A stretch of 64,000 nt of DNA, from assembly GCA_028707635.1 (NCBI GenBank), contig JAQWAQ010000004.1:2548-66547 (forward strand). Reading direction: 5' to 3'. The notes under the pieces are model-generated. The model did not search any database. It saw only the letters and a list, made by a program, of their open reading frames with translations, and was not told the origin of the DNA. The first letter of the stretch is position 1. Each line of letters begins with the position of its first letter. Position numbers and translations under genes: made by a program. The DNA is from Negativicutes bacterium. GTDB lineage: Bacteria > Bacillota > Negativicutes > JAAYSF01. Positions 2,956-62,655 of the stretch are shown here, one piece after another.

Positions 2956-3078
2956 GCTGAATCAAGTCTCACGTTATCGCAAAACTGCGCAATCCCTTCC
3001 TCTAAAAATACTTCTTTATTTTTTCTGTGGTTTAGATATAATAAATTGTTACCAACAAACTAAACTCAGTAATTTAAA

Positions 3079-5104: not shown

Positions 5105-5653
5105 ATGAACAACAAATTATATGCCATTATTGGTCCGCCCGGATCAGGTAAAACTACAATTGTAAAAAGATTAAAAGACTTTGGAATTCCCGTTCTGGTA
5201 AGCCATACAACAAGACCGCCAAAAAGCAATGAAAAAGCTGGCCATGACTATTATTTTGTCGATCAAACAACATTTTCGAATATGGTTTTTCTGGAAAAGG
5301 TCCTCTATGCAAACAATTTATATGGTCTAACAAAAGACGAAGTCTTAAATAAAGTCCATAACAATCCTATATCTATTGTTGAAATTGAACGAAATGGATT
5401 AGAGCAGCTAAAAAATTTACTTGGAGTACGTTTAGAATCTATTTATATTCTTGTGGATAAAAATACGCTTATCGAGCGCTACGTAGATCAAGGCGAAAAA
5501 TTCGACTCTATCAAACAACGCATTAAATTTGTCGAGGAAAACAATGAGTTTAATAATTGGCAAATTGCCGACCATGTTGTAAAAAACACCAACACAATAG
5601 ATATAACTGTACGTCAAATTTTAGCCATCATGGGTATGACAACAATAAAGTGA
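5105..5653 (+). CDS. Guanylate kinase-like P-loop kinase (divergent GMP kinase family)
   Basis: 182 aa with the Walker A motif GPPGSGKTT and the guanylate-kinase HTTRPP motif. Sits in an AT-rich stretch with RBS GGAGGGAT upstream. Stand-alone, and not the housekeeping gmk context. Confidence 0.65.
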   Translation: MNNKLYAIIGPPGSGKTTIVKRLKDFGIPVLVSHTTRPPKSNEKAGHDYYFVDQTTFSNMVFLEKVLYANNLYGLTKDEVLNKVHNNPISIVEIERNGLEQLKNLLGVRLESIYILVDKNTLIERYVDQGEKFDSIKQRIKFVEENNEFNNWQIADHVVKNTNTIDITVRQILAIMGMTTIK

Positions 5654-5723
5654 GACTTGAATCTGAAGAAGATCTGGGGACGCTCTTAACTTAAATTAAA
5701 TTAAGAGTCGTCCCCAGATCTTC
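5645..5723 (+). repeat. Variant copy of the intergenic repeat family (shared 5' module ATAAAGTGAGACTTGAxTCxGA, then a 57-nt hairpin)
   Basis: The 5' module is near-identical to the copies at 15521, 39824 and 55347 and overlaps the TGA stop of the kinase-like gene. It is followed by the inverted repeat GAAGATCTGGGGACG...CGTCCCCAGATCTTC. Confidence 0.55.
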
Positions 5724-5789
5724 ATTTCAAAGGAATAGGCAAAAACAGTCCTGCTTGCCCCCTATTTTAGACGGCCGAAAAACAGCCCC

Positions 5790-9394: not shown

Positions 9395-9621
9395 TGTAAG
9401 TTCCCCCCGATAATATTTTGCGTCACAATCTATATATGGCTACCTTCTATTTGAAAACGATAAAGTCCTTCATGCTATAAACTGCTAAGTGTTTTTCTTC
9501 CCTAATATGTTATTTACACGCAATACTAGCCGGTCAATCCAAATTTCATATCCGATTAAGCTCACGTATACCTCCAAACTTTAATTTTCATAAGTATAGC
9601 ACTACTTCCTCAAGGTTATAT

Positions 9622-9660
9622 ACGAAAATAGAATCACTATCAAGCGATAGTGATTCTATT
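9622..9660. terminator. Perfect 15-bp inverted repeat between the orphan gene and dnaB; a possible bidirectional terminator
   Basis: AATAGAATCACTATC aagc GATAGTGATTCTATT, lying downstream of the dnaB stop on the minus strand. Confidence 0.45.
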
Positions 9661-9694
9661 TTAATTTCAATTTATGGGTAAATCAACAACAATA

Positions 9695-15520: not shown

Positions 15521-15627
15521 ATAAAGTGAGACTTGATTCAGATGGAGTTAAAACTTCACCTGAATCCTAGCCGAACCGTCTCCAGGGACTTAGCCGCTCT
15601 TTACTTGTAGAATAAGAGCAGCTTGGT
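15521..15627 (+). repeat. Full copy of the structured intergenic repeat (copy A)
   Basis: ATAAAGTGAGACTTGATTCAGATGGAGTTAAAACTTCACCTGAATCCTAGCCGAACCGTCTCCAGGGACTTAGCCGCTCTTTACTTGTAGAATAAGAG. It has a 15-bp imperfect hairpin module plus a 3' hairpin module and overlaps the gdpP RBS. Confidence 0.7.
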
Positions 15628-15671
15628 CAATTATCCCACTTCAATCATTCGCTCAAAACTACGCACTTTCT

Positions 15672-17077: not shown

Positions 17078-17126
17078 ATAAAGACTTAGCCGCTCTTCAC
17101 TTGTAGAAGAAAAGCGGCTAAGTCCC
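17078..17126 (+). repeat. Internally deleted copy of the intergenic repeat (5' ATAAAG joined to the 3' hairpin module)
   Basis: ATAAAGACTTAGCCGCTCTTCACTTGTAGAAGAAAAGCGGCTAAGTCCC. The 3' module forms a perfect nested hairpin (GACTTAGCCGC/GCGGCTAAGTC around TCTTC...GAAGA). Confidence 0.55.
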
Positions 17127-17139
17127 TTGATAAAACACT

Positions 17140-17175
17140 AAAGGCCAAGAGTTCAATCGCACTCTTGGCCTTTTT
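17140..17175. terminator. Hairpin terminator downstream of rpsR
   Basis: GGCCAAGAGT tcaatcgc ACTCTTGGCC flanked by A- and T-runs. Confidence 0.5.
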
Positions 17176-36969: not shown

Positions 36970-37164
36970 CCGCAAGCCTCCCTCTAAATTAGCTTCTCCG
37001 TAATTATTTCTTAAATAACACTTTCGCCAATATTTGGGAAATTCCTGCTAACCATTGGTATTTTTATTATAAAATAACAAAGCCGCTCCTAACTACCTTT
37101 TATACCTTGACCAGAGATAAAATGATAGTTAGGAACGGCTAGCATTCAGAATGAGTTCTCGGAA

Positions 37165-37674
37165 TCACACCTTATTTATCGCAATTTCTAAAGCTTTCTT
37201 TTCCTCATTTGTTAAAAAGTATGAAGACTGCCCCTCAGCGACAGGCTTAGCATACGACCTTGATTCACTTCTGCCAAAAATACTAGAAAGAATGATGCCA
37301 TTATTTTTTGCATCCAACAAAGCAATGGCATAACTTAAATCACTGCCGGTATCTTCGAAGGCATTAAACCTTACAACTCCAACTTTCTGTACGCAATTCT
37401 TCGAAGTATTTTCCAGTCGGCTGCAACTAGCTGAAAGCTGTTCAACCTTAGCCATGCCTTGCCTTACTTCTTCAATATGGCTCATAAGCAATCGCTCGAT
37501 GTTTGCCCCTTCCATCCCTTGCATCATCTTTCGATAGCGACGATTCATTTTAGCCAATTTAAAGTTTATATTTATAAAAATTATTAGTGCAAGCAATATC
37601 AGTACTGTCATTGTCAACAATACATACTGTAAATTGCTCATAATCAGAGCCGTAAACTGTGTTAGAGTTATCAT
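37165..37674 (-). CDS. DUF4446 family protein
   Basis: 169 aa with one N-terminal TM then a coiled-coil/alpha-beta domain. DUF4446 genes commonly neighbour parA/parB in Firmicutes. Confidence 0.55.
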   Translation of the reverse strand: MITLTQFTALIMSNLQYVLLTMTVLILLALIIFININFKLAKMNRRYRKMMQGMEGANIERLLMSHIEEVRQGMAKVEQLSASCSRLENTSKNCVQKVGVVRFNAFEDTGSDLSYAIALLDAKNNGIILSSIFGRSESRSYAKPVAEGQSSYFLTNEEKKALEIAINKV

Positions 37675-39751: not shown

Positions 39752-39770
39752 AAACAGCCTCCTCCATCTA

Positions 39771-39808
39771 AAAAGTTATTATGTTTCACGTGAAACATAA
39801 TAACTTTT
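39771..39808. promoter_or_regulatory. Perfect 38-nt palindrome (19+19) centred on CACGTG, abutting the hydF RBS; a bidirectional terminator or operator
   Basis: AAAAGTTATTATGTTTCAC|GTGAAACATAATAACTTTT flanked by A4 and T5. It ends 5 nt before the hydF RBS GGAGGAGG. Confidence 0.5.
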
Positions 39809-39823
39809 AATCAACCATGATAT

Positions 39824-39931
39824 ATAAAGCGAGACTAGATTCAGGTTGAGTTTTAATTCCACCTGAACCCTAGCTGAACCGTATCTAGGGACCGCTCTTC
39901 ACTTGTAGAAGAAGATCACCTAAGTCATCGG
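39824..39931 (+). repeat. Copy C of the structured intergenic repeat
   Basis: ATAAAGCGAGACTAGATTCAGGTTGAGTTTTAATTCCACCTGAACCCTAGCTGAACCGTATCTAGGGACCGCTCTTCACTTGTAGAAGAAGATCACCTAAGTCATCGG, abutting the spo0J stop codon. Confidence 0.65.
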
Positions 39932-39936
39932 ATAAA

Positions 39937-40845
39937 TTAAACCGTAAATATTCCTCGCGATTGGGTTGCTGCAGCCATTTGCTGCGCCGTAAGAACTTCA
40001 ATAATGCGATCGAGGTCGTCGCTAGAACGAAATTCAATTTCAATTTTACTTTTAAGTTTACCGGGCTTAATTTTAACCTTAGTACCAAGCAGTAATTTAA
40101 GTCGGTCTTCAGCTTCGACTAAGAAGATTTCCTGTTCATCTGTCGGTTGCTGTTGCTGGCGTTGCTGCCGTGGTTTAGCCGCTAAGCGGCGCACAAGTTC
40201 CTCTGCATCGCGAGCGGATAAATCCTCTTCAATAATATGTTCTGCCGCTTCAATTTGTCGCTCAGCCGATTCTAATGCCAATAAAGGTTTAGCTTGTCCC
40301 ATAGACAATGTTCCACGTGAAACATGTACCTGGACCGACTCCGGCAAGTTTAAAAGACGAATTGTATTTGCGATAAGCGACCGACTGCGGCCAATTTTAT
40401 GAGCTACCTCTTCCTGAGTAAGACCGAACCTTTCCATTAAACTACGAAACGCTAAAGCCTCTTCCACTGGATTTAAATCCTGACGCTGTAAATTTTCGAT
40501 CAGCGCTATTTCCGTCATTTCACCATCAGTATAGTCCCGAACAACAGCAGGAATGTCTTTCAGGCCAGCAGCCTTCGATGCCCGCCACCGTCGTTCCCCG
40601 GCAACCAATTCATAGCCAGTGAGCGTTTTTCGTACAACAACAGGTTGAATAACACCATATTGTTTGACAGATTGAATCAGCTCGGCCATGACTTCATCAT
40701 CAAAATCCCGTCGCGGCTGAAACGGATTAGGTCGGATATCCTTGACCGCTACCTCATTAATTTTTTTTGTATCGTTGGCATCGGTGCCTGGCAGCAGCGA
40801 CTCCAAGCCACGGCCTAACCCACGAGCTTGCTTATTCATCACCAA
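39937..40845 (-). CDS. parB: Chromosome partitioning protein ParB (Spo0J)
   Basis: ParB box motifs (GERRWRA, IALIENLQR), an HTH, and synteny with parA (soj) upstream. Confidence 0.9.
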   Translation of the reverse strand: MVMNKQARGLGRGLESLLPGTDANDTKKINEVAVKDIRPNPFQPRRDFDDEVMAELIQSVKQYGVIQPVVVRKTLTGYELVAGERRWRASKAAGLKDIPAVVRDYTDGEMTEIALIENLQRQDLNPVEEALAFRSLMERFGLTQEEVAHKIGRSRSLIANTIRLLNLPESVQVHVSRGTLSMGQAKPLLALESAERQIEAAEHIIEEDLSARDAEELVRRLAAKPRQQRQQQQPTDEQEIFLVEAEDRLKLLLGTKVKIKPGKLKSKIEIEFRSSDDLDRIIEVLTAQQMAAATQSRGIFTV

Positions 40846-51915: not shown

Positions 51916-52050
51916 TTATGCTGATAATTTTTTTCTTCCTCTAGCACGTCTTTTCTGTAAAACAAGACGGCCACCTTTTGTTTTCATACGTTCACGGAAA
52001 CCATGAGTTCTCTTTTTCCATAATGTATTTGGTTGATACGTACGTTTCAT
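51916..52050 (-). CDS. rpmH: 50S ribosomal protein L34
   Basis: Hand-translated 44-aa [47 protein letters not shown], with RBS GGAGGTG at 8-nt spacing. Absent from the ORF track because it is under 60 aa. Confidence 0.9.
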
Positions 52051-52149
52051 ATCTAAAACACCTCCTCGCTTAAAGCGGAACTTTCCATATTAAAAATTAT
52101 TTTTAACTAATAAAATTATAGACTAGTCGATTGATAGTGTCAAGGAAAT

Positions 52150-52536
52150 TGCGCTTTCTAATGACTAAAAGCTGTGGATAATTTTGTCGCGCATTATTAC
52201 GTGGGGTAAAAAACTGTTGATAACCCTACTACCTTTTGTTAATATAGACATGATAGATATCCACAAATTAAGCACATTTATCTGTTTATACACATAAAAC
52301 CAATACTTATTAACAAAATAACCTATTTATACACAGAGTTATCCACATTATCTAAAAACTTCTCCTTTAATGCAATTACAAGGTATTGTTTTAGACAAAA
52401 ACCTGATTTTGGCTTTTTTTTTCGCCAAAATTCCTTTTTTGAGTAAAGTTATACACACCTGTTGATAACAATGTGGATAACTTATGTTGAGTTATTATTG
52501 AAATTGTTGATATTTGGATCTGAAAGGACGGACACT
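52150..52536. promoter_or_regulatory. oriC part 1 / dnaA promoter region with a DnaA-box cluster and AT-rich tract
   Basis: Perfect TTATCCACA boxes at about 52183-52191 (minus strand), 52339-52347 (plus) and 52472-52480 (minus). Near-consensus boxes TGTTGATAA (52215, 52461) and ATATCCACA (52256). T-rich tract at 52400-52440. Confidence 0.8.
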
Positions 52537-53976
52537 ATGGAAACCATCCAACTTGAGGCCCTATGGGAGCAAATCATGAATCATCTTGAGCAAGAACTAT
52601 CAAGTCTTACATATAATACTTGGCTCAAACCAATGGTTCCGCTTTGCATAACGAAAACTACTTTTGAGATTGGTACTTCAAAAAAATTTATCAAGGAATG
52701 GGTGGAATCCAGATATTTCTCAATCATTCAAAACACCGTCCAAAATATTACAAAGCAGCCATTAACTTTAATTATTACTAATATGGAGGAAGATGAGACA
52801 ATTCCTCCTATCGACATTCCACAAGAACAACCCGCAGGTAATCAACCGAATGAAACATCACAACAGTTATTCACTAATATTCCGGCGCCAATTCGACCAG
52901 TGTACAAACCTGAACCCTCCTCACAAAATAATTTTTCATCAGATGAACCTCTTGCTATTTTAAATCCCAAATATATTTTTGAGACCTTTGTTATCGGCAA
53001 TGCAAACCGCTTTGCTCATGCGGCCTCATTAGCCGTAGCTGAAGCACCTGCCCAAGTCTATAACCCATTTTTTATTTATGGCGGAGTAGGCCTTGGTAAA
53101 ACCCATCTCATGCATGCCATTGGCCATCGGATTCTAAAAACTCACCCTCATCTTAGAGTTGTCTATATTTCAAGTGAAAAATTCACAAATGAACTTATCA
53201 ATTCTATTCGGGATGGAAATCCTGAAAGCTTTCGGCAAAAATACCGTAATGTCGACGTTCTTCTCGTCGATGATATTCAGTTCTTATCGAAAAAAGAACA
53301 TACTCAAGAAGAGTTTTTCCACACCTTCAACACTCTCCACGAAGCGAATAAACAGATTATTATTTCAAGCGACCGTCCGCCTCGTGATATTCAGACCTTA
53401 GAAGACCGGCTGCGTTCCCGCTTTGAATGGGGTCTTATTACCGATATTCAGCCACCTGACCTTGAAACACGGATTGCTATTTTACGGAAAAAGGCTATGA
53501 TTGAGAACCTTAATGTCCCTAATGATGTCATGGTGTTTATTGCCAGCCGAATTGATAACAATATTCGAGAGCTAGAGGGTGCTTTAATAAGAGTAATGGC
53601 ATACGCATCATTAACAAAGCAATCAATTGATATTGATCTGGCAACCGAAGCACTTAAGGATATCTTTCCAAATGGTCGACCTAAAGAAATAACAATGGAA
53701 CTTATCCAGGAGGTTGTATCCTCGTATTTTAAAATTCGTATTGATGACTTACTTGCTAAAAAGCGAACCAGAAACGTAACTTATCCACGACAAATTGCTA
53801 TGTACCTATGCCGGGAAATGACTGAGACCTCCTTACCACGAATCGGCGAAATGTTTGGCGGGCGAGATCACACAACAGTTATCCACGCCCACGACAAGAT
53901 TAATCGCGAACGAGCCGAAGATATTAAACTAAGTAATACGATTAAAGAATTAATCAAAAGGATAGAAAGTGTATAA
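52537..53976 (+). CDS. dnaA: Chromosomal replication initiator DnaA
   Basis: AAA+ domain Walker [11 protein letters not shown] and the C-terminal DNA-binding domain signature. Start at [10 protein letters not shown], with RBS AGGACGGA. The ORF extends upstream to 52462. Confidence 0.95.
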
Positions 53977-54234
53977 ATCTGTTAGTATCTCAGGTATAAA
54001 GTTGTAAACAATATGTTGATAAACTTATCCCAGTAAATTTGTGTTAATATGTGTATAACCCATGGTATAGTTATCTACATATTATTCACATTACCGCCTG
54101 TTGATAACTATGTGTCGACAGCGCTTATCAACATATTAACAGGCCCTACGACTATTACGACTACTTTTTATATTTTAACTACTTATAATAATAATATACC
54201 CCCTACCCCCAAAACCGAACCGGAGGTCGATGTA
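53977..54234. promoter_or_regulatory. oriC part 2 (dnaA-dnaN intergenic DnaA boxes plus an AT-rich DNA-unwinding element)
   Basis: Boxes TGTTGATAA (about 54013 and 54096), TTATCAACA (about 54124), AGTTATCTACA (about 54069), and the AT-rich run ACTTATAATAATAATATAC (54181-54200). Confidence 0.7.
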
Positions 54235-55344
54235 ATGAAAATCTTCTGTAGTAAAGAATTGCTAAATCAAGCTGTTCAAACAGTTCAAAAAGCTGTTGCC
54301 ACCAAAACACAGTTACCTATATTAACTGGTATTTACTTAGCAGCAAACGACAATAAACTAGAACTTCATGCAACTGACTATGAAATCGGAATTAAATGCA
54401 TCATTGATGCTCAAGTCGAAATACCTGGCACTGTTGTCATATCCGGTCGCTATTTTCAAGAAATGGTTCGTAAATTACCTGGTGATACAATTGAAATTTC
54501 ATCATCAACTGAAGATAGAACAATAAAAATAACGGCAAATTCTGCTCAATTTAATCTCCTTAGTCTGCCTGTTGAAGAATTTCCAGTTTTGAAGCAACTA
54601 ACAAGCGATAGTTTTATGATTGTAAAAGATAATGTTTTAAAAGAACTGATCAAAAAAACCGTTTTTGCGTGCGCTAACGATGAAGCCAGGCCGATATTTA
54701 CAGGCTGTTTACTTGAATCTAACGAAAAAGATATCAAAATGGTGGCGACAAATACTCACCGTCTGGCTCTCAAAAAAGATAGCAGTGAACAATCATTAAA
54801 TAATCTAAAAATGATTATTCCAGCCAAAATACTCCATGAATTAGCGCGTATTATGAATTCGGAAACACCAATTGATATAAAGATATACTGGTTAAAAAAT
54901 CAGGTAGCTTTTGAATTTGAGAATATTTATATCATATCGAGATTGATTGAAGGGCAGTTCCCTGACTACAACAAAGTAATCCCGCCAAGTTTTGCTACAA
55001 ATGTACTCATAAACACGAAACAATTACTTGATGCTGTTGAAAGAGTTGCTTTAATGGCCAGAGATAATGATTACAATGTTATTAAACTGGCTTTTAAAAC
55101 TGATTCAATTACCATAACATCAAACAACCCGGATATTGGCAAAGCATGTGAGGTTGTCGATGCTGCGCTTGAGGGAAATGAAGTTGATATCGCTTTTAAT
55201 GTCAAATATATTTCTGATATTCTCAAGAATATTGATAGTGAAAATTTGAAATTTTCACTTAACACTCCATTGAGCCCAGCTAGTATTAGACCTATTGATG
55301 ACGAAAATTACATATATATCGTTACACCGGTTAGGACAAACTAA
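54235..55344 (+). CDS. dnaN: DNA polymerase III beta sliding clamp
   Basis: MKIFCSKELLNQAVQTVQKAV is a canonical DnaN start. RBS GGAGGT is 7 nt upstream. The ORF's upstream extension from 54049 covers oriC and is rejected. Confidence 0.95.
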   Translation: MKIFCSKELLNQAVQTVQKAVATKTQLPILTGIYLAANDNKLELHATDYEIGIKCIIDAQVEIPGTVVISGRYFQEMVRKLPGDTIEISSSTEDRTIKITANSAQFNLLSLPVEEFPVLKQLTSDSFMIVKDNVLKELIKKTVFACANDEARPIFTGCLLESNEKDIKMVATNTHRLALKKDSSEQSLNNLKMIIPAKILHELARIMNSETPIDIKIYWLKNQVAFEFENIYIISRLIEGQFPDYNKVIPPSFATNVLINTKQLLDAVERVALMARDNDYNVIKLAFKTDSITITSNNPDIGKACEVVDAALEGNEVDIAFNVKYISDILKNIDSENLKFSLNTPLSPASIRPIDDENYIYIVTPVRTN

Positions 55345-55346
55345 AT

Positions 55347-55473
55347 ATAAAGTGAGACTTGATTCAGATGGAGTTTTAACTCCACCTGAATCCTAGTCGA
55401 ACCGTATCCAGGGACTTAGCCGCAAAGACTCCTGCTTTTACAAGCGGGAGTCTTAGCGCGGGTTAGTCATCGG
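55347..55473 (+). repeat. Copy B of the structured intergenic repeat
   Basis: Begins 2 nt after the dnaN stop: ATAAAGTGAGACTTGATTCAGATGGAGTTTTAACTCCACCTGAATCCTAGTCGAACCGTATCCAGGGACTTAGCCGC...GCGGGTTAGTCATCGG, with a nested 3' hairpin AGACTCC...GGAGTCT. Confidence 0.7.
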
Positions 55474-55498
55474 AAAAACATTTCATGGAGGTTATTCT

Positions 55499-55714
55499 AT
55501 GCAAGAAATAACCATATCAACTCCTTATATCAATTTAGATCAGCTTTTAAAGTGGGCGGGTATCATTGATACTGGAGGACAAATTAAACCAATGTTGGAA
55601 GATGGGTTGATTAAATTAAATCGTCTCACCGTAAGTCAACGACGCAAAAAAATCTATCCTGGCGATATTATTGATATTGAAGGTGTCGGCACATACAAAA
55701 TCATTGCTGAGTAA
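55499..55714 (+). CDS. yaaA: S4-domain RNA-binding protein YaaA
   Basis: 71-aa S4 fold protein between dnaN and recF, as in Bacillus. Confidence 0.8.
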   Translation: MQEITISTPYINLDQLLKWAGIIDTGGQIKPMLEDGLIKLNRLTVSQRRKKIYPGDIIDIEGVGTYKIIAE

Positions 55715-55723
55715 GGTGCTATT

Positions 55724-56830
55724 ATGAAGGTTAAAAACCTTAGTCTTTATAACTACCGTAATTATGTAAAGTTGAATTTAGAATTTAAACATAATCTTAA
55801 TATTTTTGTCGGCCAGAACGCCCAAGGGAAGACAAATATTTTAGAATCTATCTATGTCGGTGCCATGGGACGCTCTCACCGGACAAATACTGATCAAGAG
55901 CTTATTCATTGGTATCAGCCCGGCGGTTCCATTAATATGACATTTACTAGGCAGGATATTGAAAATAAATTATCATTTAAATTCATATCTGACCAAAATA
56001 AGGAAATAATATTAAATGGCCAAACGATTAAAGTTCGCGACTTGATCGGGCAGCTCAATGCCGTCATGTTTTCGCCTGAAGACTTGATGTTGATTAAAGG
56101 CGCACCAGTCGGACGACGGAAGTTTCTTGACAGTGAAATATCGCAGGCTAACCCTGCTTATTATCGCAATTTACTGCAATATAATCGGATCGTAGCGCAG
56201 CGTAACAATCTATTAAAAAAGATCCGTGAATGTAAAGCAAGACCGGAAATGCTTGATACTTGGGATGCACAAATCGCTAGTTCGGCTGCTATTATTGTAA
56301 ATAAGCGTCAGGATGCATTAAAAAAGCTCACTATGTTAGCCAATCTTATGCATCGGAAAATTACAGCCAGTCGGGAAAATCTTACAATAACCTATTTTCA
56401 ATGTGGTCTTTGTCAGCCTGTTAATCATATTGAAGAGTGGTACTTGCAACAGATGGCAAATAACCGCCATATTGATATTGCCCGCGGTAGTACAAGCGTA
56501 GGTCCCCATCGTGATGATTTAATTTTTAATGTAAATGGAATTAATTTAAGAAATTTCGGTTCGCAGGGTCAGCAACGTACTGGCGTGTTAGCCTTAAAGC
56601 TCGCCGAAATTGAATTTATAAAATCAGAAACAGGCGAATATCCCGTACTGCTCTTAGATGACGTGATGAGTGAACTTGATGCTTCGCGCCGGGAGCAGTT
56701 ATTATCATTTATAAAAGATCGCATTCAAACATTTATCACTGCGACCGAACCAAAGTATTTTTCTGAACATAAAATGGGCCATTATTATTCTGTTGTTGAA
56801 GGAAAAGTTGAACAATTTGATTGGAAGTGA
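55724..56830 (+). CDS. recF: DNA replication and repair protein RecF
   Basis: Walker A GQNAQGKTN, the SMC-like signature and Walker B LLLDDVMSELD. Confidence 0.95.
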   Translation: MKVKNLSLYNYRNYVKLNLEFKHNLNIFVGQNAQGKTNILESIYVGAMGRSHRTNTDQELIHWYQPGGSINMTFTRQDIENKLSFKFISDQNKEIILNGQTIKVRDLIGQLNAVMFSPEDLMLIKGAPVGRRKFLDSEISQANPAYYRNLLQYNRIVAQRNNLLKKIRECKARPEMLDTWDAQIASSAAIIVNKRQDALKKLTMLANLMHRKITASRENLTITYFQCGLCQPVNHIEEWYLQQMANNRHIDIARGSTSVGPHRDDLIFNVNGINLRNFGSQGQQRTGVLALKLAEIEFIKSETGEYPVLLLDDVMSELDASRREQLLSFIKDRIQTFITATEPKYFSEHKMGHYYSVVEGKVEQFDWK

Positions 56831-60290: not shown

Positions 60291-60334
60291 ATAGTAACCA
60301 GTTGTACAACTACCAATATATTACAATTAAATAC

Positions 60335-60600
60335 CTTTGAGGTAGGTGCCCTAACGGGCTTAATAGGGAAGTCCGGTGTAACGCCGGCGCGGTCCCGCCA
60401 CTGTAATGAGGAGCAAACCCATGTTATGCCACTAGGACGAAATTCTTGGGAAGGTTTGGGGGAGCGATGATCCAGAGCCAGGAGAACTGCCTATCTAACA
60501 ATCACCGTTTTATTTACCCACGCGCGATGGGGAGGGGATTTATTCATTGGAGTAATCTATCCTTCCCGGCTATTCTTATGCCGGGATTTTTATTTGCTAT
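60335..60600 (+). ncRNA. Cobalamin (AdoCbl) riboswitch with a terminator expression platform
   Basis: Conserved core GGTGCC...AATAGGGAAGTCCGGTG.AACGCCGG.GCGGTCCCGCCACTGTAA, the B12 box AGCCAGGAGAACTGCCT, then the terminator CCCGGCTATTCTTATGCCGGG followed by ATTTTTATTT. Upstream of a TonB-dependent receptor. Confidence 0.9.
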
Positions 60601-60786: not shown

Positions 60787-62655
60787 ATGAAAAACCAATT
60801 GGCGAAAATGATCTGCAGCACGTTGGCGGTAGGCTTTCTGGCCATGCCAAGCGTACTGGCGGCGGAAGAAATGATGGAATATAGTCTGGGTGAGGTCATT
60901 GTAACCGCTCAGCGCTATGAAAAGCGTAATATAGATGTGGCGGCTTCGACCGAGATTTTAACTGAAGCCGACTTACGGAACACCGGCGCCAGCAATTTGT
61001 ATGATGCGTTGCGGTTTTCGACCGGCTTGGAAATGCAACAGTATGGTACGGCAGGATCTTCCATGGGAAATATGACTAGCAAAATTGCCATTAGAGGCAA
61101 CAATGGTGGCACGTTGGTACTGATAAACGGGATGCCGCTGAATATTCGCGGTACCTATGATTTAAATGACATACAGGTTGACGACATCGAACGGGTAGAA
61201 ATTATTCGCGGTGGCGGATCAGTTTTATATGGCAGTGAAGCGACCGGCGGGGTCATCAATATCATTACCAAGAAGAAGCGCAGTAATTATTTTAAGACCG
61301 GCTGGGGCAACTACGGTCAGCAAGAGCATACTTTGAGTCTGCAAGCCGATAAGAAGCTAGGCATTGGCTATCAATATTCGGAATGGGGCAAGCGGAATAA
61401 TGTAGACTCCGAAGGGAGAAAATGGATTGGACCGGAGAACAATAGTCTGAGTATCACCTATGCATTTAATGACAAATTAGACTTTTCGTATAATCGGATT
61501 GAGTCACAATATCACTATATTACTATTAAAGATTCTAAAAAGTCCCCAGCCTCTGATATTAAACAAGATATTGATAGAAATAATGCGCAGTTATCTTATC
61601 ATGATGATGATTTTAAAGCAACGGTATATTATGTAGATCGGACACGGGAAAAAGATGCGATCGAAACCACATCAAAGAACCGTTTTGTCGATGAAGAAAA
61701 GAACAAAAATTACGGTCTTGATATGCAGAAAGCTTGGGATATTACCGCCGGAAAAGTTTTATTTGGCGGAACATTCAAGCGGGAAGAATACATACCAGAT
61801 ACAAAAGGAACAATTGTTGAGCGAGAAAATCAAGCGCGCAATAACTTTTCAGCCTATACTCAGTATGAGAAACAGGTAAGCGCTCTGAACACTTGGATTC
61901 TTAGTGCGCGTGAATCTTGGACAACTGGAGCACCAAATGCGCATAACAACACAAACTTCAGCGGCCAAGCGCAGTTTGTCCATAAGATGACTGAAAACGA
62001 AAATCTGTATGCCAGTGTGGGAGAATCCTATAAGATGCCAGATCTGCACCAGATATGGAAATCCGGCGTGAAACAATTGGAACCTCAGACCGGTAGGCAC
62101 TATGAATTGGGCTGGAAGAAAAATTCCGGTATTCATAACTGGCGGGTAGCTGTATTTAATTACAATATTGATGATAATATCAGTGCTACGTTTAATAGCA
62201 AAAAGAATGATTTTGAATATAAAAATGAAAATTTAAAAAATACCGGCATTGAATTGGAATGTACAATTAAACCCAGCCAAAATCCTTTTAGTTATCGCTA
62301 TGCGGTCAGTTATGGGAATCCGAAAACAGAAAATATCGATGCCGCGGGCGTTTCGTTAGGCTGGCAGCCTAATTTTTCCCGATGGGAAGTTAAAGGCGGC
62401 ATAACCTATCAGCAGGATAAATGGCAGGCCGCTATGAACGCTTCGTATATGGCGGATAGAGTTTTAAGCGGCATAGATAAGAAACCATATTTGCTGACAA
62501 ATTTAAATGTAAATTATGCAATGACAAAAGACCGGAGCCTTTTCCTGACGATTAATAATTTGCTTGACCGGGAGGATGTTTCCTACGCTTCAACTTCTGC
62601 TGACTACTACTTTGCGCCGATCAATTATATGATAGGATATAAAATGACATTTTAA
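60787..62655 (+). CDS. btuB: TonB-dependent outer-membrane receptor (BtuB-like cobalamin transporter)
   Basis: Signal peptide, TonB box region (GEVIVTA), plug and 22-strand barrel, with a C-terminal aromatic residue (YKMTF). Controlled by the cobalamin riboswitch. Confidence 0.85.
   Translation: MKNQLAKMICSTLAVGFLAMPSVLAAEEMMEYSLGEVIVTAQRYEKRNIDVAASTEILTEADLRNTGASNLYDALRFSTGLEMQQYGTAGSSMGNMTSKIAIRGNNGGTLVLINGMPLNIRGTYDLNDIQVDDIERVEIIRGGGSVLYGSEATGGVINIITKKKRSNYFKTGWGNYGQQEHTLSLQADKKLGIGYQYSEWGKRNNVDSEGRKWIGPENNSLSITYAFNDKLDFSYNRIESQYHYITIKDSKKSPASDIKQDIDRNNAQLSYHDDDFKATVYYVDRTREKDAIETTSKNRFVDEEKNKNYGLDMQKAWDITAGKVLFGGTFKREEYIPDTKGTIVERENQARNNFSAYTQYEKQVSALNTWILSARESWTTGAPNAHNNTNFSGQAQFVHKMTENENLYASVGESYKMPDLHQIWKSGVKQLEPQTGRHYELGWKKNSGIHNWRVAVFNYNIDDNISATFNSKKNDFEYKNENLKNTGIELECTIKPSQNPFSYRYAVSYGNPKTENIDAAGVSLGWQPNFSRWEVKGGITYQQDKWQAAMNASYMADRVLSGIDKKPYLLTNLNVNYAMTKDRSLFLTINNLLDREDVSYASTSADYYFAPINYMIGYKMTF

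Follow-up and report, generated by a model that had tools for sequence, protein, structure and literature searches.

The intergenic repeats on this Negativicutes contig are, very probably, mostly old and internally deleted copies of a small non-coding mobile element, and the family to which this element belongs is best known as bcr1. The window (the whole stretch of 64,000 nucleotides that was analyzed) comes from a Sporomusaceae-like Negativicutes MAG assembled from a bioreactor metagenome, to which its DnaN and Spo0J match at 100%; an exact-protein look-up of its GdpP gave no record. An earlier note, made from the letters of the window alone, had listed five copies of a structured repeat and read them as either a mobile repeat of the MITE or REP kind, or else a multicopy structured sRNA or terminator module. 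It is the mobile-repeat reading that has stood up, on four kinds of observation: insertion polymorphism between relatives, ATAAA/TTTAT repeats at the ends, modular deletion derivatives, and many copies in related genomes.

The extents of the window copies were refined using two covariance models (R1 and R2, for both of which the E-values are rough) together with direct reading of the sequence. All five listed copies are on the + strand, essentially at the positions first given for them. The most complete one, of 131 nt, lies at 55347-55477 (+; R1 64.2 bits, E = 8e-13; R2 126.8 bits), and consists of a leader ATAAAGTGAGACTT, hairpin 1 (55361-55392), a linker CCTAGTCGAACCGTATCC, a nested hairpin 2 (~55407-55474), and, at the 3′ end, a degenerate AAAAA. 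The predicted fold of this copy is -61.3 kcal/mol (z -8.3). The other copies in the window are deletion derivatives of this full-element plan. The copy at 15521-15638 (+; R1 36.8 bits, E = 2e-6; R2 96.4 bits) has lost the inner stem of hairpin 2 and has a degenerate 3′ end; it is 93.5% identical by blastn to the 55347 copy across 77 nt. The one at 39824-39936 (+; R1 30.1 bits, E = 7e-5; R2 82.5 bits) is missing part of hairpin 2, in the left arm; its ATAAA is intact at both ends. In the internally deleted copy at 17078-17134 (+), which was identified by sequence reading, by blastn against the other copies (E = 2e-7), and by R2 at 25-30 bits on both strands, ATAAAG is fused straight to hairpin 2 (GACTTAGCCGCT...AGCGGCTAAGTC) ahead of a terminal GATAAA, and the predicted fold is -24.1 kcal/mol (z -6.5). 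Finally, hairpin 1 is absent from the variant copy at 5645-5731 (+; R1 24.2 bits, E = 0.0016), which R1 aligns as leader plus hairpin 2, and in which the leader ATAAAGTGAGACTTGAATCTG runs into a single long hairpin that is nearly perfect (z -8.5). The best blastn E-value between window copies is 5e-28, and a 16-nt core occurs three times in the window versus 0.31 times expected by chance.

Two further candidates lie on the minus strand. One is a solo 21-nt leader remnant (ATAACGTGAGACTTGATTCAG) at 2957-2977 (-), a weak call because it is so short, with 20/21 matches by blastn and only 12-13 bits by R1 or R2. The other is a possible, strongly decayed copy at 37066-37175 (-; R2 21.1 bits, E = 0.005), tentatively called, that retains ATAAGGTGTGA...CTGAATGCTAGCCG and continues into a hairpin and a T-run. 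The description of the repeats as all lying in the same chromosomal orientation is thus correct for the five listed copies and does not extend to these two, and that five of six or seven copies share one orientation is statistically unremarkable. A scan of the window with R2 found no additional strong copies. We rejected a candidate at 9585-9675 (-; R1 23 bits, R2 12 bits), which looks like an ordinary AT-rich terminator 3′ of dnaB; the sequence ATAAATTGAAATTAAAATAG upstream of that hairpin is weakly leader-like, probably by chance in AT-rich DNA.

The link to Bacillus comes from a model that contains no Negativicutes sequence. R1 was built from an alignment (A1) of 12 Bacilli copies only, and when it is run against the window with filters off, its four top-ranked matches are, in order, the 55347, 15521, 39824, and 5645 copies, every one of them beginning exactly at ATAAAG. 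A sequence-only nhmmer profile places the same four window copies on top. R1 scores the copies of Sporomusa and Pelosinus at 70-87 bits, and a window copy and a Bacillus copy are ~79% identical over aligned positions.

The Bacillus repeat used for R1 agrees with each of the published structural descriptors of bcr1. bcr1 is reported as a repeat of ~155 bp with 5-bp flanking direct repeats and a cruciform-like fold, in which compensatory changes maintain two independent stem-loops; it is transcribed (PMC3184786). Its TTTAT motif is possibly duplicated at insertion, and a mechanism resembling site-specific recombination has been suggested (PMC6199540, PMC6542083). It is the most abundant of the bcr repeats, with a mean of 39 copies per genome (PMC6542083). 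Together with bcr2 and bcr3 it makes up group A of the Bacillus cereus repeats, according to Okstad et al. 2004, Klevan et al. 2007, and Kristoffersen et al. 2011 as these are quoted in PMC3184786, PMC6199540, and PMC6542083; the title of Okstad et al. 2004, as cited in the same three papers, calls it specific to the B. cereus group. The name is assigned here by match to the published descriptors and not to a named sequence: bcr1 is the best matching member, bcr2 or bcr3 are possible, and among the plasmid and phage collections no record is labeled bcr1.

What the window copies share with bcr1 is sequence homology, the order of modules, the flanking TTTAT/ATAAA, and two stem-loops with compensatory changes, as well as a non-coding nature, intergenic or UTR sites, insertion polymorphism between relatives, and an abundance of partial copies. 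The differences are those of a variant. Against the ~155 bp of bcr1 (155-165 nt for the Bacillus copies used here), the window copies measure 57-131 nt and the full copies of Sporomusa and Pelosinus 128-135 nt, the shorter Negativicutes form (~113-135 nt) having shorter loops in both hairpins. The stem sequences also differ, being GGTGGAGTT / AACTCCAYC here versus GTGGGGG / CCCCCAC for bcr1. And whereas bcr1 has been reported as restricted to the B. cereus group, a statement on distribution and not on structure, the homologs found here are in Sporomusa, Pelosinus, Gracilibacillus, Virgibacillus, and Pseudalkalibacillus. The Negativicutes copies are a shorter variant of the known bcr1-type, MITE-like family.

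The earlier note did not recognize the element as a described RNA family, but novelty does not hold: the Bacilli-only model, with its E-value of 8e-13, and the published descriptors make it a homolog of bcr1 or the group A bcr repeats. A match to a family already described was among the outcomes that the note itself had named as a refutation. On the other hand, it is correct that the element is not in Rfam. A gathering-level scan of the window reports a cobalamin riboswitch only, and permissive scans of three copies report no family, just noise of the hairpin-type miRNA sort. That riboswitch (RF00174, 114 bits) is at 60327-60508 (+), upstream of an ORF at 60787-62655. The literature that we searched holds no report of a bcr1-type family outside the B. 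cereus group. 'Chunjie', which might be taken for a Geobacillus relative of bcr1, is an unrelated MITE of Geobacter whose inverted repeats are 21 bp long.

The full-element plan is clearest in the 55347 copy and in those of Sporomusa. Read along the + strand of the window, it starts with a near-invariant single-stranded leader (ATAAAGTGARACTT), an invariance that is partly by construction as most family members were gathered by an exact leader pattern. The leader is followed by hairpin 1, with arms GATTCAGGTGGAGTT / AACTCCAYCTGAATC, and by a conserved linker with consensus YTAGYYGAAC..ATC (YTAGYCGAAC..ATCC at 55347 and in Sporomusa). After the linker comes hairpin 2, which is long and nested; GGGACTTAGSCGCTCT / AGAGCGSCTTRGTC form its outer stem and ACTCCCA / TGGGAGT the inner one. 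The element closes with a 3′ GATAAA (CATCGGATAAA at the element end). Palindromic half-sites, GTGGRG and CYCCAC, recur in both hairpins. The ATAAA...ATAAA of the window + strand corresponds to TTTAT...TTTAT in the published bcr1 convention, which is the reverse complement.

This structure is conserved. For the 12 Bacilli copies, RNAalifold predicts two hairpins, with double changes in 17 of 40 pairs, and the window copy folds in the same way. When 56 copies are aligned to R1, 89.7% of the cells are paired, versus ~42% with slid partners, and double changes appear in 32 of the 40 pairs; none of 500 shuffles reaches the observed values. These pairing counts are somewhat inflated by having fitted the alignment to the R1 structure. 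The covariation that the earlier note proposed to look for with a covariance model is present (those 32 of 40 pairs), and what fails at the level of the family is its suggestion of wobble pairs on one strand: among the non-Watson-Crick paired cells of the 56 copies, G-T/T-G (93) and A-C/C-A (87) are equal in number.

Does conserved structure here mean a conserved RNA? One possibility is a functional structured RNA, either a multicopy sRNA, a module that stabilizes or processes mRNAs, or a terminator, selected for its role in the transcripts in which it is found. The very stable predicted folds (z down to -8.5) and the strong covariation would agree with it, and so would the presence of copies in UTRs and operon spacers, and the report that in B. 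cereus about half of the bcr copies are transcribed within mRNAs (PMC3446304). But G-U is not in excess over A-C at paired positions (93 vs. 87), and either strand of the window copies folds equally well. From this equality of the strands, we conclude that the constraint acts on the palindrome as such, rather than on a one-stranded RNA copy of it. In addition, the orientation of the copies relative to neighboring genes is random, the copies are not conserved at orthologous loci, there is no match in Rfam, and mRNA decay rate in B. cereus was found to correlate with bcr3 only, not with bcr1 (PMC3446304). A terminator is further contradicted by the absence of a T-tract after either hairpin, and by a scan that finds separate terminators beside copies and none within them, such as the one at 17140-17173. 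Within the essential gene strings dnaN-recF and gdpP-rplI-dnaB, moreover, window copies would be transcribed in either orientation, which argues against terminator activity. We consider a selected RNA function quite improbable, and the sRNA and terminator alternatives offered at the outset are not supported, for lack of a T-tract, of a G-U excess, and of any orientation bias, and given both orientations in operons. The lack of strand asymmetry, together with the random orientation with respect to flanking genes, favors a role in mobility at the DNA level over an RNA function.

Mobility is visible directly in the comparison with relatives. At the dnaN site, the window reads ...CTAAAT ATAAA[GTGAG...CATCGG]AAAAA CATTTCATGGAGG, the element lying within the brackets, and the site is empty in four relatives (L025, L028, L029, L185). 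In relatives with DnaN 80-83% identical, there are ~30 bp from dnaN to the next gene, one of them reading ...CTAATATATAAAATAAATTTTGGAGG; a relative with a 90% identical DnaN reads TAAGTATAAAGCAAAAG. At the parB site, read in the direction of parB, the window has TAA TTTAT[element]TTTAT ATATCATGG...parS, and an 80% relative (L188) has the empty site TAA TTTAT GCTAATTATGTTTCATGTGAAACAT, with one TTTAT directly past the stop codon. Two more relatives (L190 and L191), sharing the same 83%-identical ParB, also lack the element at this site, and a contig of the same species (L187) has the site filled and differs from the window by one base. The empty dnaN and parB sites come from relatives whose flanking proteins are 80-90% identical, and they carry a single ATAAA/TTTAT. 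No copy is found in ~85 kb of orthologous DNA of relatives.

The element's target is this pentanucleotide. Of the window copies, 39824-39936 and 17078-17134 have ATAAA intact on both ends, which answers the call in the earlier note for a look at target-site duplications; the 55347 copy has an exact 5′ ATAAA and a degenerate 3′ one (AAAAA), and in the 15521 copy only the 5′ end remains. At one metagenome locus, a head-to-tail pair of copies has one TAAA in common. In Sporomusa rhizae (L013:3850-3984, -), an element sits in the loop of an apparent rho-independent terminator, as GTGGTTGGACT / element / AGTCCAGCCACCTTTTTTT. A short-read contig of the window species (L186, Logan SRR19226405) stops 30 nt into the element after dnaN, which is a typical repeat-induced assembly break, and indirectly indicates that the repeat is probably multicopy in that genome.

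Empty sites also bear on the idea that the repeats are not mobile at all, and are instead sites that a host protein binds or recombines, for example to organize the chromosome near the origin. In favor of this, there are five to seven copies in 64 kb around oriC, one of them beside a parS site, and the palindromic half-sites recur in both hairpins. However, close relatives have the same oriC-proximal regions without a copy, copies elsewhere sit on plasmids, in prophages, and at unrelated loci, and most of the window copies are decayed. Of all the alternatives to a mobile element that we weighed, this one we regard as the least credible, and very improbable. The parS-like site itself, TGTTTCACGTGAAACA at 39782-39797, is inside a palindrome (39770-39809) just downstream of parB and beside the element, and it is kept in relatives without the element.

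The genes flanking the window copies were named by Pfam. The adjacency claims made before (dnaN, spo0J, a kinase-like gene, and the gdpP ribosome-binding site) all hold on reading the sequence. The 55347 copy lies between dnaN and an S4-domain gene, its first base 2 nt past the dnaN stop codon. The 39824-39936 copy has its 3′ ATAAA directly abutting the stop codon of parB/spo0J (39937-39939). The copy at 15521-15638 fills the space from the stop codon of a DUF2232 gene to the ribosome-binding site of gdpP, which its 5′ end abuts, both genes being on the minus strand. The 17078-17134 copy lies between a MazG-like gene and ssb. At 5645, a guanylate-kinase-like ORF (5105-5653) runs 9 nt into the leader and stops on the leader's own TGA (5651-5653), so that the final two codons of this ORF, and its stop codon, come from the insertion. 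The remnant at 2957-2977 is upstream of a small minus-strand DUF1540 gene (Pfam). A preference for the pentanucleotide would account for copies in just such AT-rich spots, by stop codons, by ribosome-binding sites, and in terminator loops. Any effect of the element on these flanking housekeeping genes is probably small.

Neither replication nor transcription gives a meaning to the orientation of the copies. We place oriC near 52 kb of the window, by the GC-skew minimum and dnaA, and with replication starting from ~52 kb, four of the window copies run one way and three the other. As for transcription, strings of housekeeping genes contain window copies in either sense. Among ~150 copies, a crude ORF-based count that includes redundant loci classes 17 contexts as co-directional, 16 as anti-directional, 19 as convergent, and 13 as divergent. 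Given these mixed orientations, the shared + orientation within the window has no evident meaning, and the weight that had been put on it is not sustained by a family that is unbiased with respect to neighboring genes (17 vs. 16). As for the origin itself, the cumulative GC skew has its minimum at ~52000-56000 of the window, where GC goes down to 0.36; dnaA (52462-53976) and dnaN are inside that stretch, which looks like the chromosomal replication origin.

If the element is mobile, what moves it? It could be a stripped-down palindrome-associated element of the IS200/IS605 type, moved as single-stranded DNA by a Y1 HUH transposase cutting 3′ of TTTAT, its hairpins being the left and right end structures. 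This would account for the absence of terminal inverted repeats, for subterminal hairpins at both ends, and for a specific pentanucleotide at the left flank that is repeated at the right end. With TTTAT read forward, ~15 nt separate hairpin 1 from the terminal TTTAT that follows it, and ~20 nt separate the flanking TTTAT from the hairpin 2 inner stem, a hairpin-to-end geometry that may resemble that of IS608. IS608-type ends carry like hairpins, however, and here the arms have opposite polarity on one strand (GTGGGGG..CCCCCAC vs. CCCCCAC..GTGGGGG). There is also no bias of orientation, either relative to genes as a proxy for replication direction (17 vs. 16) or in the window (4 vs. 3), and no tnpA or tnpB beside any of ~170 copies. 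An origin of this type is unlikely, in our judgment, although less so than an RNA function.

Other known repeat systems resemble the element in part. With the IS200/IS605-derived palindrome-associated elements, it shares the lack of terminal inverted repeats, the subterminal hairpins, and insertion beside a fixed short sequence; it departs from them in the differing polarity of its two hairpins, in having no strand or orientation bias, and in having no associated tnpA/tnpB. Classical MITEs (Correia/nemis, RUP, ERIC, Nezha) are likewise small, non-coding, multicopy, and intergenic, with stable hairpins, short flanking direct repeats, and empty and filled orthologous sites, and they are often co-transcribed with neighboring genes. 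Unlike them, the element has no terminal inverted repeats: its 5′ end (ATAAAGTGAGAC) and its reverse-complemented 3′ end (TTTATCCGATGA) do not match. We know of no related insertion sequence as the source of a transposase. Pneumococcal BOX is similarly modular, with modules lost or kept by copy, intergenic, transcribed with flanking genes, and has a mobilizing enzyme that is also unknown, but we see no sequence similarity, and BOX is made of A, B, and C modules with a variable number of B, in place of leader, hairpin 1, linker, and hairpin 2. REP and BIME sequences are GC-rich palindromes of 20-40 bp that bear a tag, GTAG or CGTC, and go together with a RAYT gene. The element, in contrast, exceeds 110 nt, has two different hairpins and a 14-nt leader, and no RAYT-like gene is seen near any copy.

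Under the reading that we prefer, that of a bcr1-type mobile element, an element without genes would be moved in trans by an enzyme, and would insert at a TTTAT/ATAAA pentanucleotide that is afterwards found on either side. The conserved leader and the two palindromes would most likely be DNA features that the mobilizing enzyme recognizes, with no RNA function to be served. Once inserted, copies would decay through deletion between short internal repeats. A circular form of the element, if there is one, is predicted to have the junction ...CGGATAAAGTGAGAC.... We looked for a parent carrying a gene using 5′ and 3′ half-profiles over 1.38 Mb of loci; this reports 77 solo 5′ modules, none of them paired with a matching 3′ module farther away so as to flank a gene. 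In the same 1.38 Mb, no protein family recurs downstream of the copies and no transposase partner appears. Within the window, there is nothing unusual about the element as a mobile repeat in decay, or genomic parasite.

Beyond the window, a scan for the exact leader over one genome per species reports matches in Sporomusa acidovorans, where two copies are nearly identical, S. rhizae, Pelosinus baikalensis, a Sporomusaceae MAG, and a Bacillota MAG. In Bacilli, it reports Gracilibacillus pellucidus and a Virgibacillus MAG, in which divergent sequences of hairpin 1 still pair. Four other matches to the leader pattern (L003, L005, L010, L054) were discarded as chance matches within unrelated sequence. 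By blastn, a window copy has no match in the plasmid and phage collections, and the link to Bacillus is through an intermediate only: the Gracilibacillus copy, which leads to records of the B. cereus group. The ~157-bp Bacillus repeat itself is in 59 records of the plasmid collection, 56 of them Bacillus, with Pseudalkalibacillus also present, and in three Bacillus phages. One of the plasmid records, NZ_CP093325.1, labeled 'Bacillus sp. N5-665 plasmid p1', is 5.5 Mb long with at least 40 copies, and is almost certainly a chromosome that was put among the plasmids by mistake.

A leader-pattern scan also reports 35 stretches in viral contigs and more than 120 in metagenomes, and R1 has 94 matches (E up to 0.01) across 80 metagenome loci, some of them intermediate between the long Bacillus and the short Sporomusa forms. 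The modular deletion forms of the window recur among the metagenome copies: some lack hairpin 1 (~125 nt), some lack hairpin 2 (~90 nt), and others have recombined between the two CCCCCAC arms (~109 nt).

Homologs in Sporomusaceae and in further genera of Bacilli make the bcr1-type family much wider, with the leader, the architecture, and the TTTAT target conserved, and the family has probably been transferred horizontally. To our knowledge, bcr1 has been known for more than 20 years, is still described as specific to B. cereus, and its movement has stayed unexplained. The wider distribution provides independent lineages in which to trace the mobilizing enzyme, via genes that co-occur with recent copies. 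We can imagine, tentatively and with the odds against it, that bcr1-type repeats form one Bacillota-wide family (Bacilli and Negativicutes) without terminal inverted repeats and targeting TTTAT, in which the leader (14-21 nt) and a hairpin would be the recognition site of a transposition or recombination enzyme shared across classes, possibly of a new type or encoded by the host. If that were so, the lineage-specific burst of copies in the MAG and the near-identical pair of S. acidovorans would mark genomes with recent, traceable activity. There is a practical side too: the repeats break short-read assemblies, as in L186, and they may pass for novel structured RNAs in genome scans.

A few of the copies outside the window have features of their own. 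A metagenome copy (L084:1802-2045, -) has an insertion past hairpin 1 with a tandem run of the hexamer GGGACT, which brings the element to 244 nt. In a viral contig (L040:580-1230) and ~10 similar ones (L031, L033, L045, L047, L055, L056, and L061 among them), there are two partial copies in the same orientation, ~600 bp apart. These contigs are apparently Bacillus prophage, and between the paired copies, on the opposite strand, lies a small ORF that, from reading the DNA, is apparently rich in Cys/Gly codon repeats.
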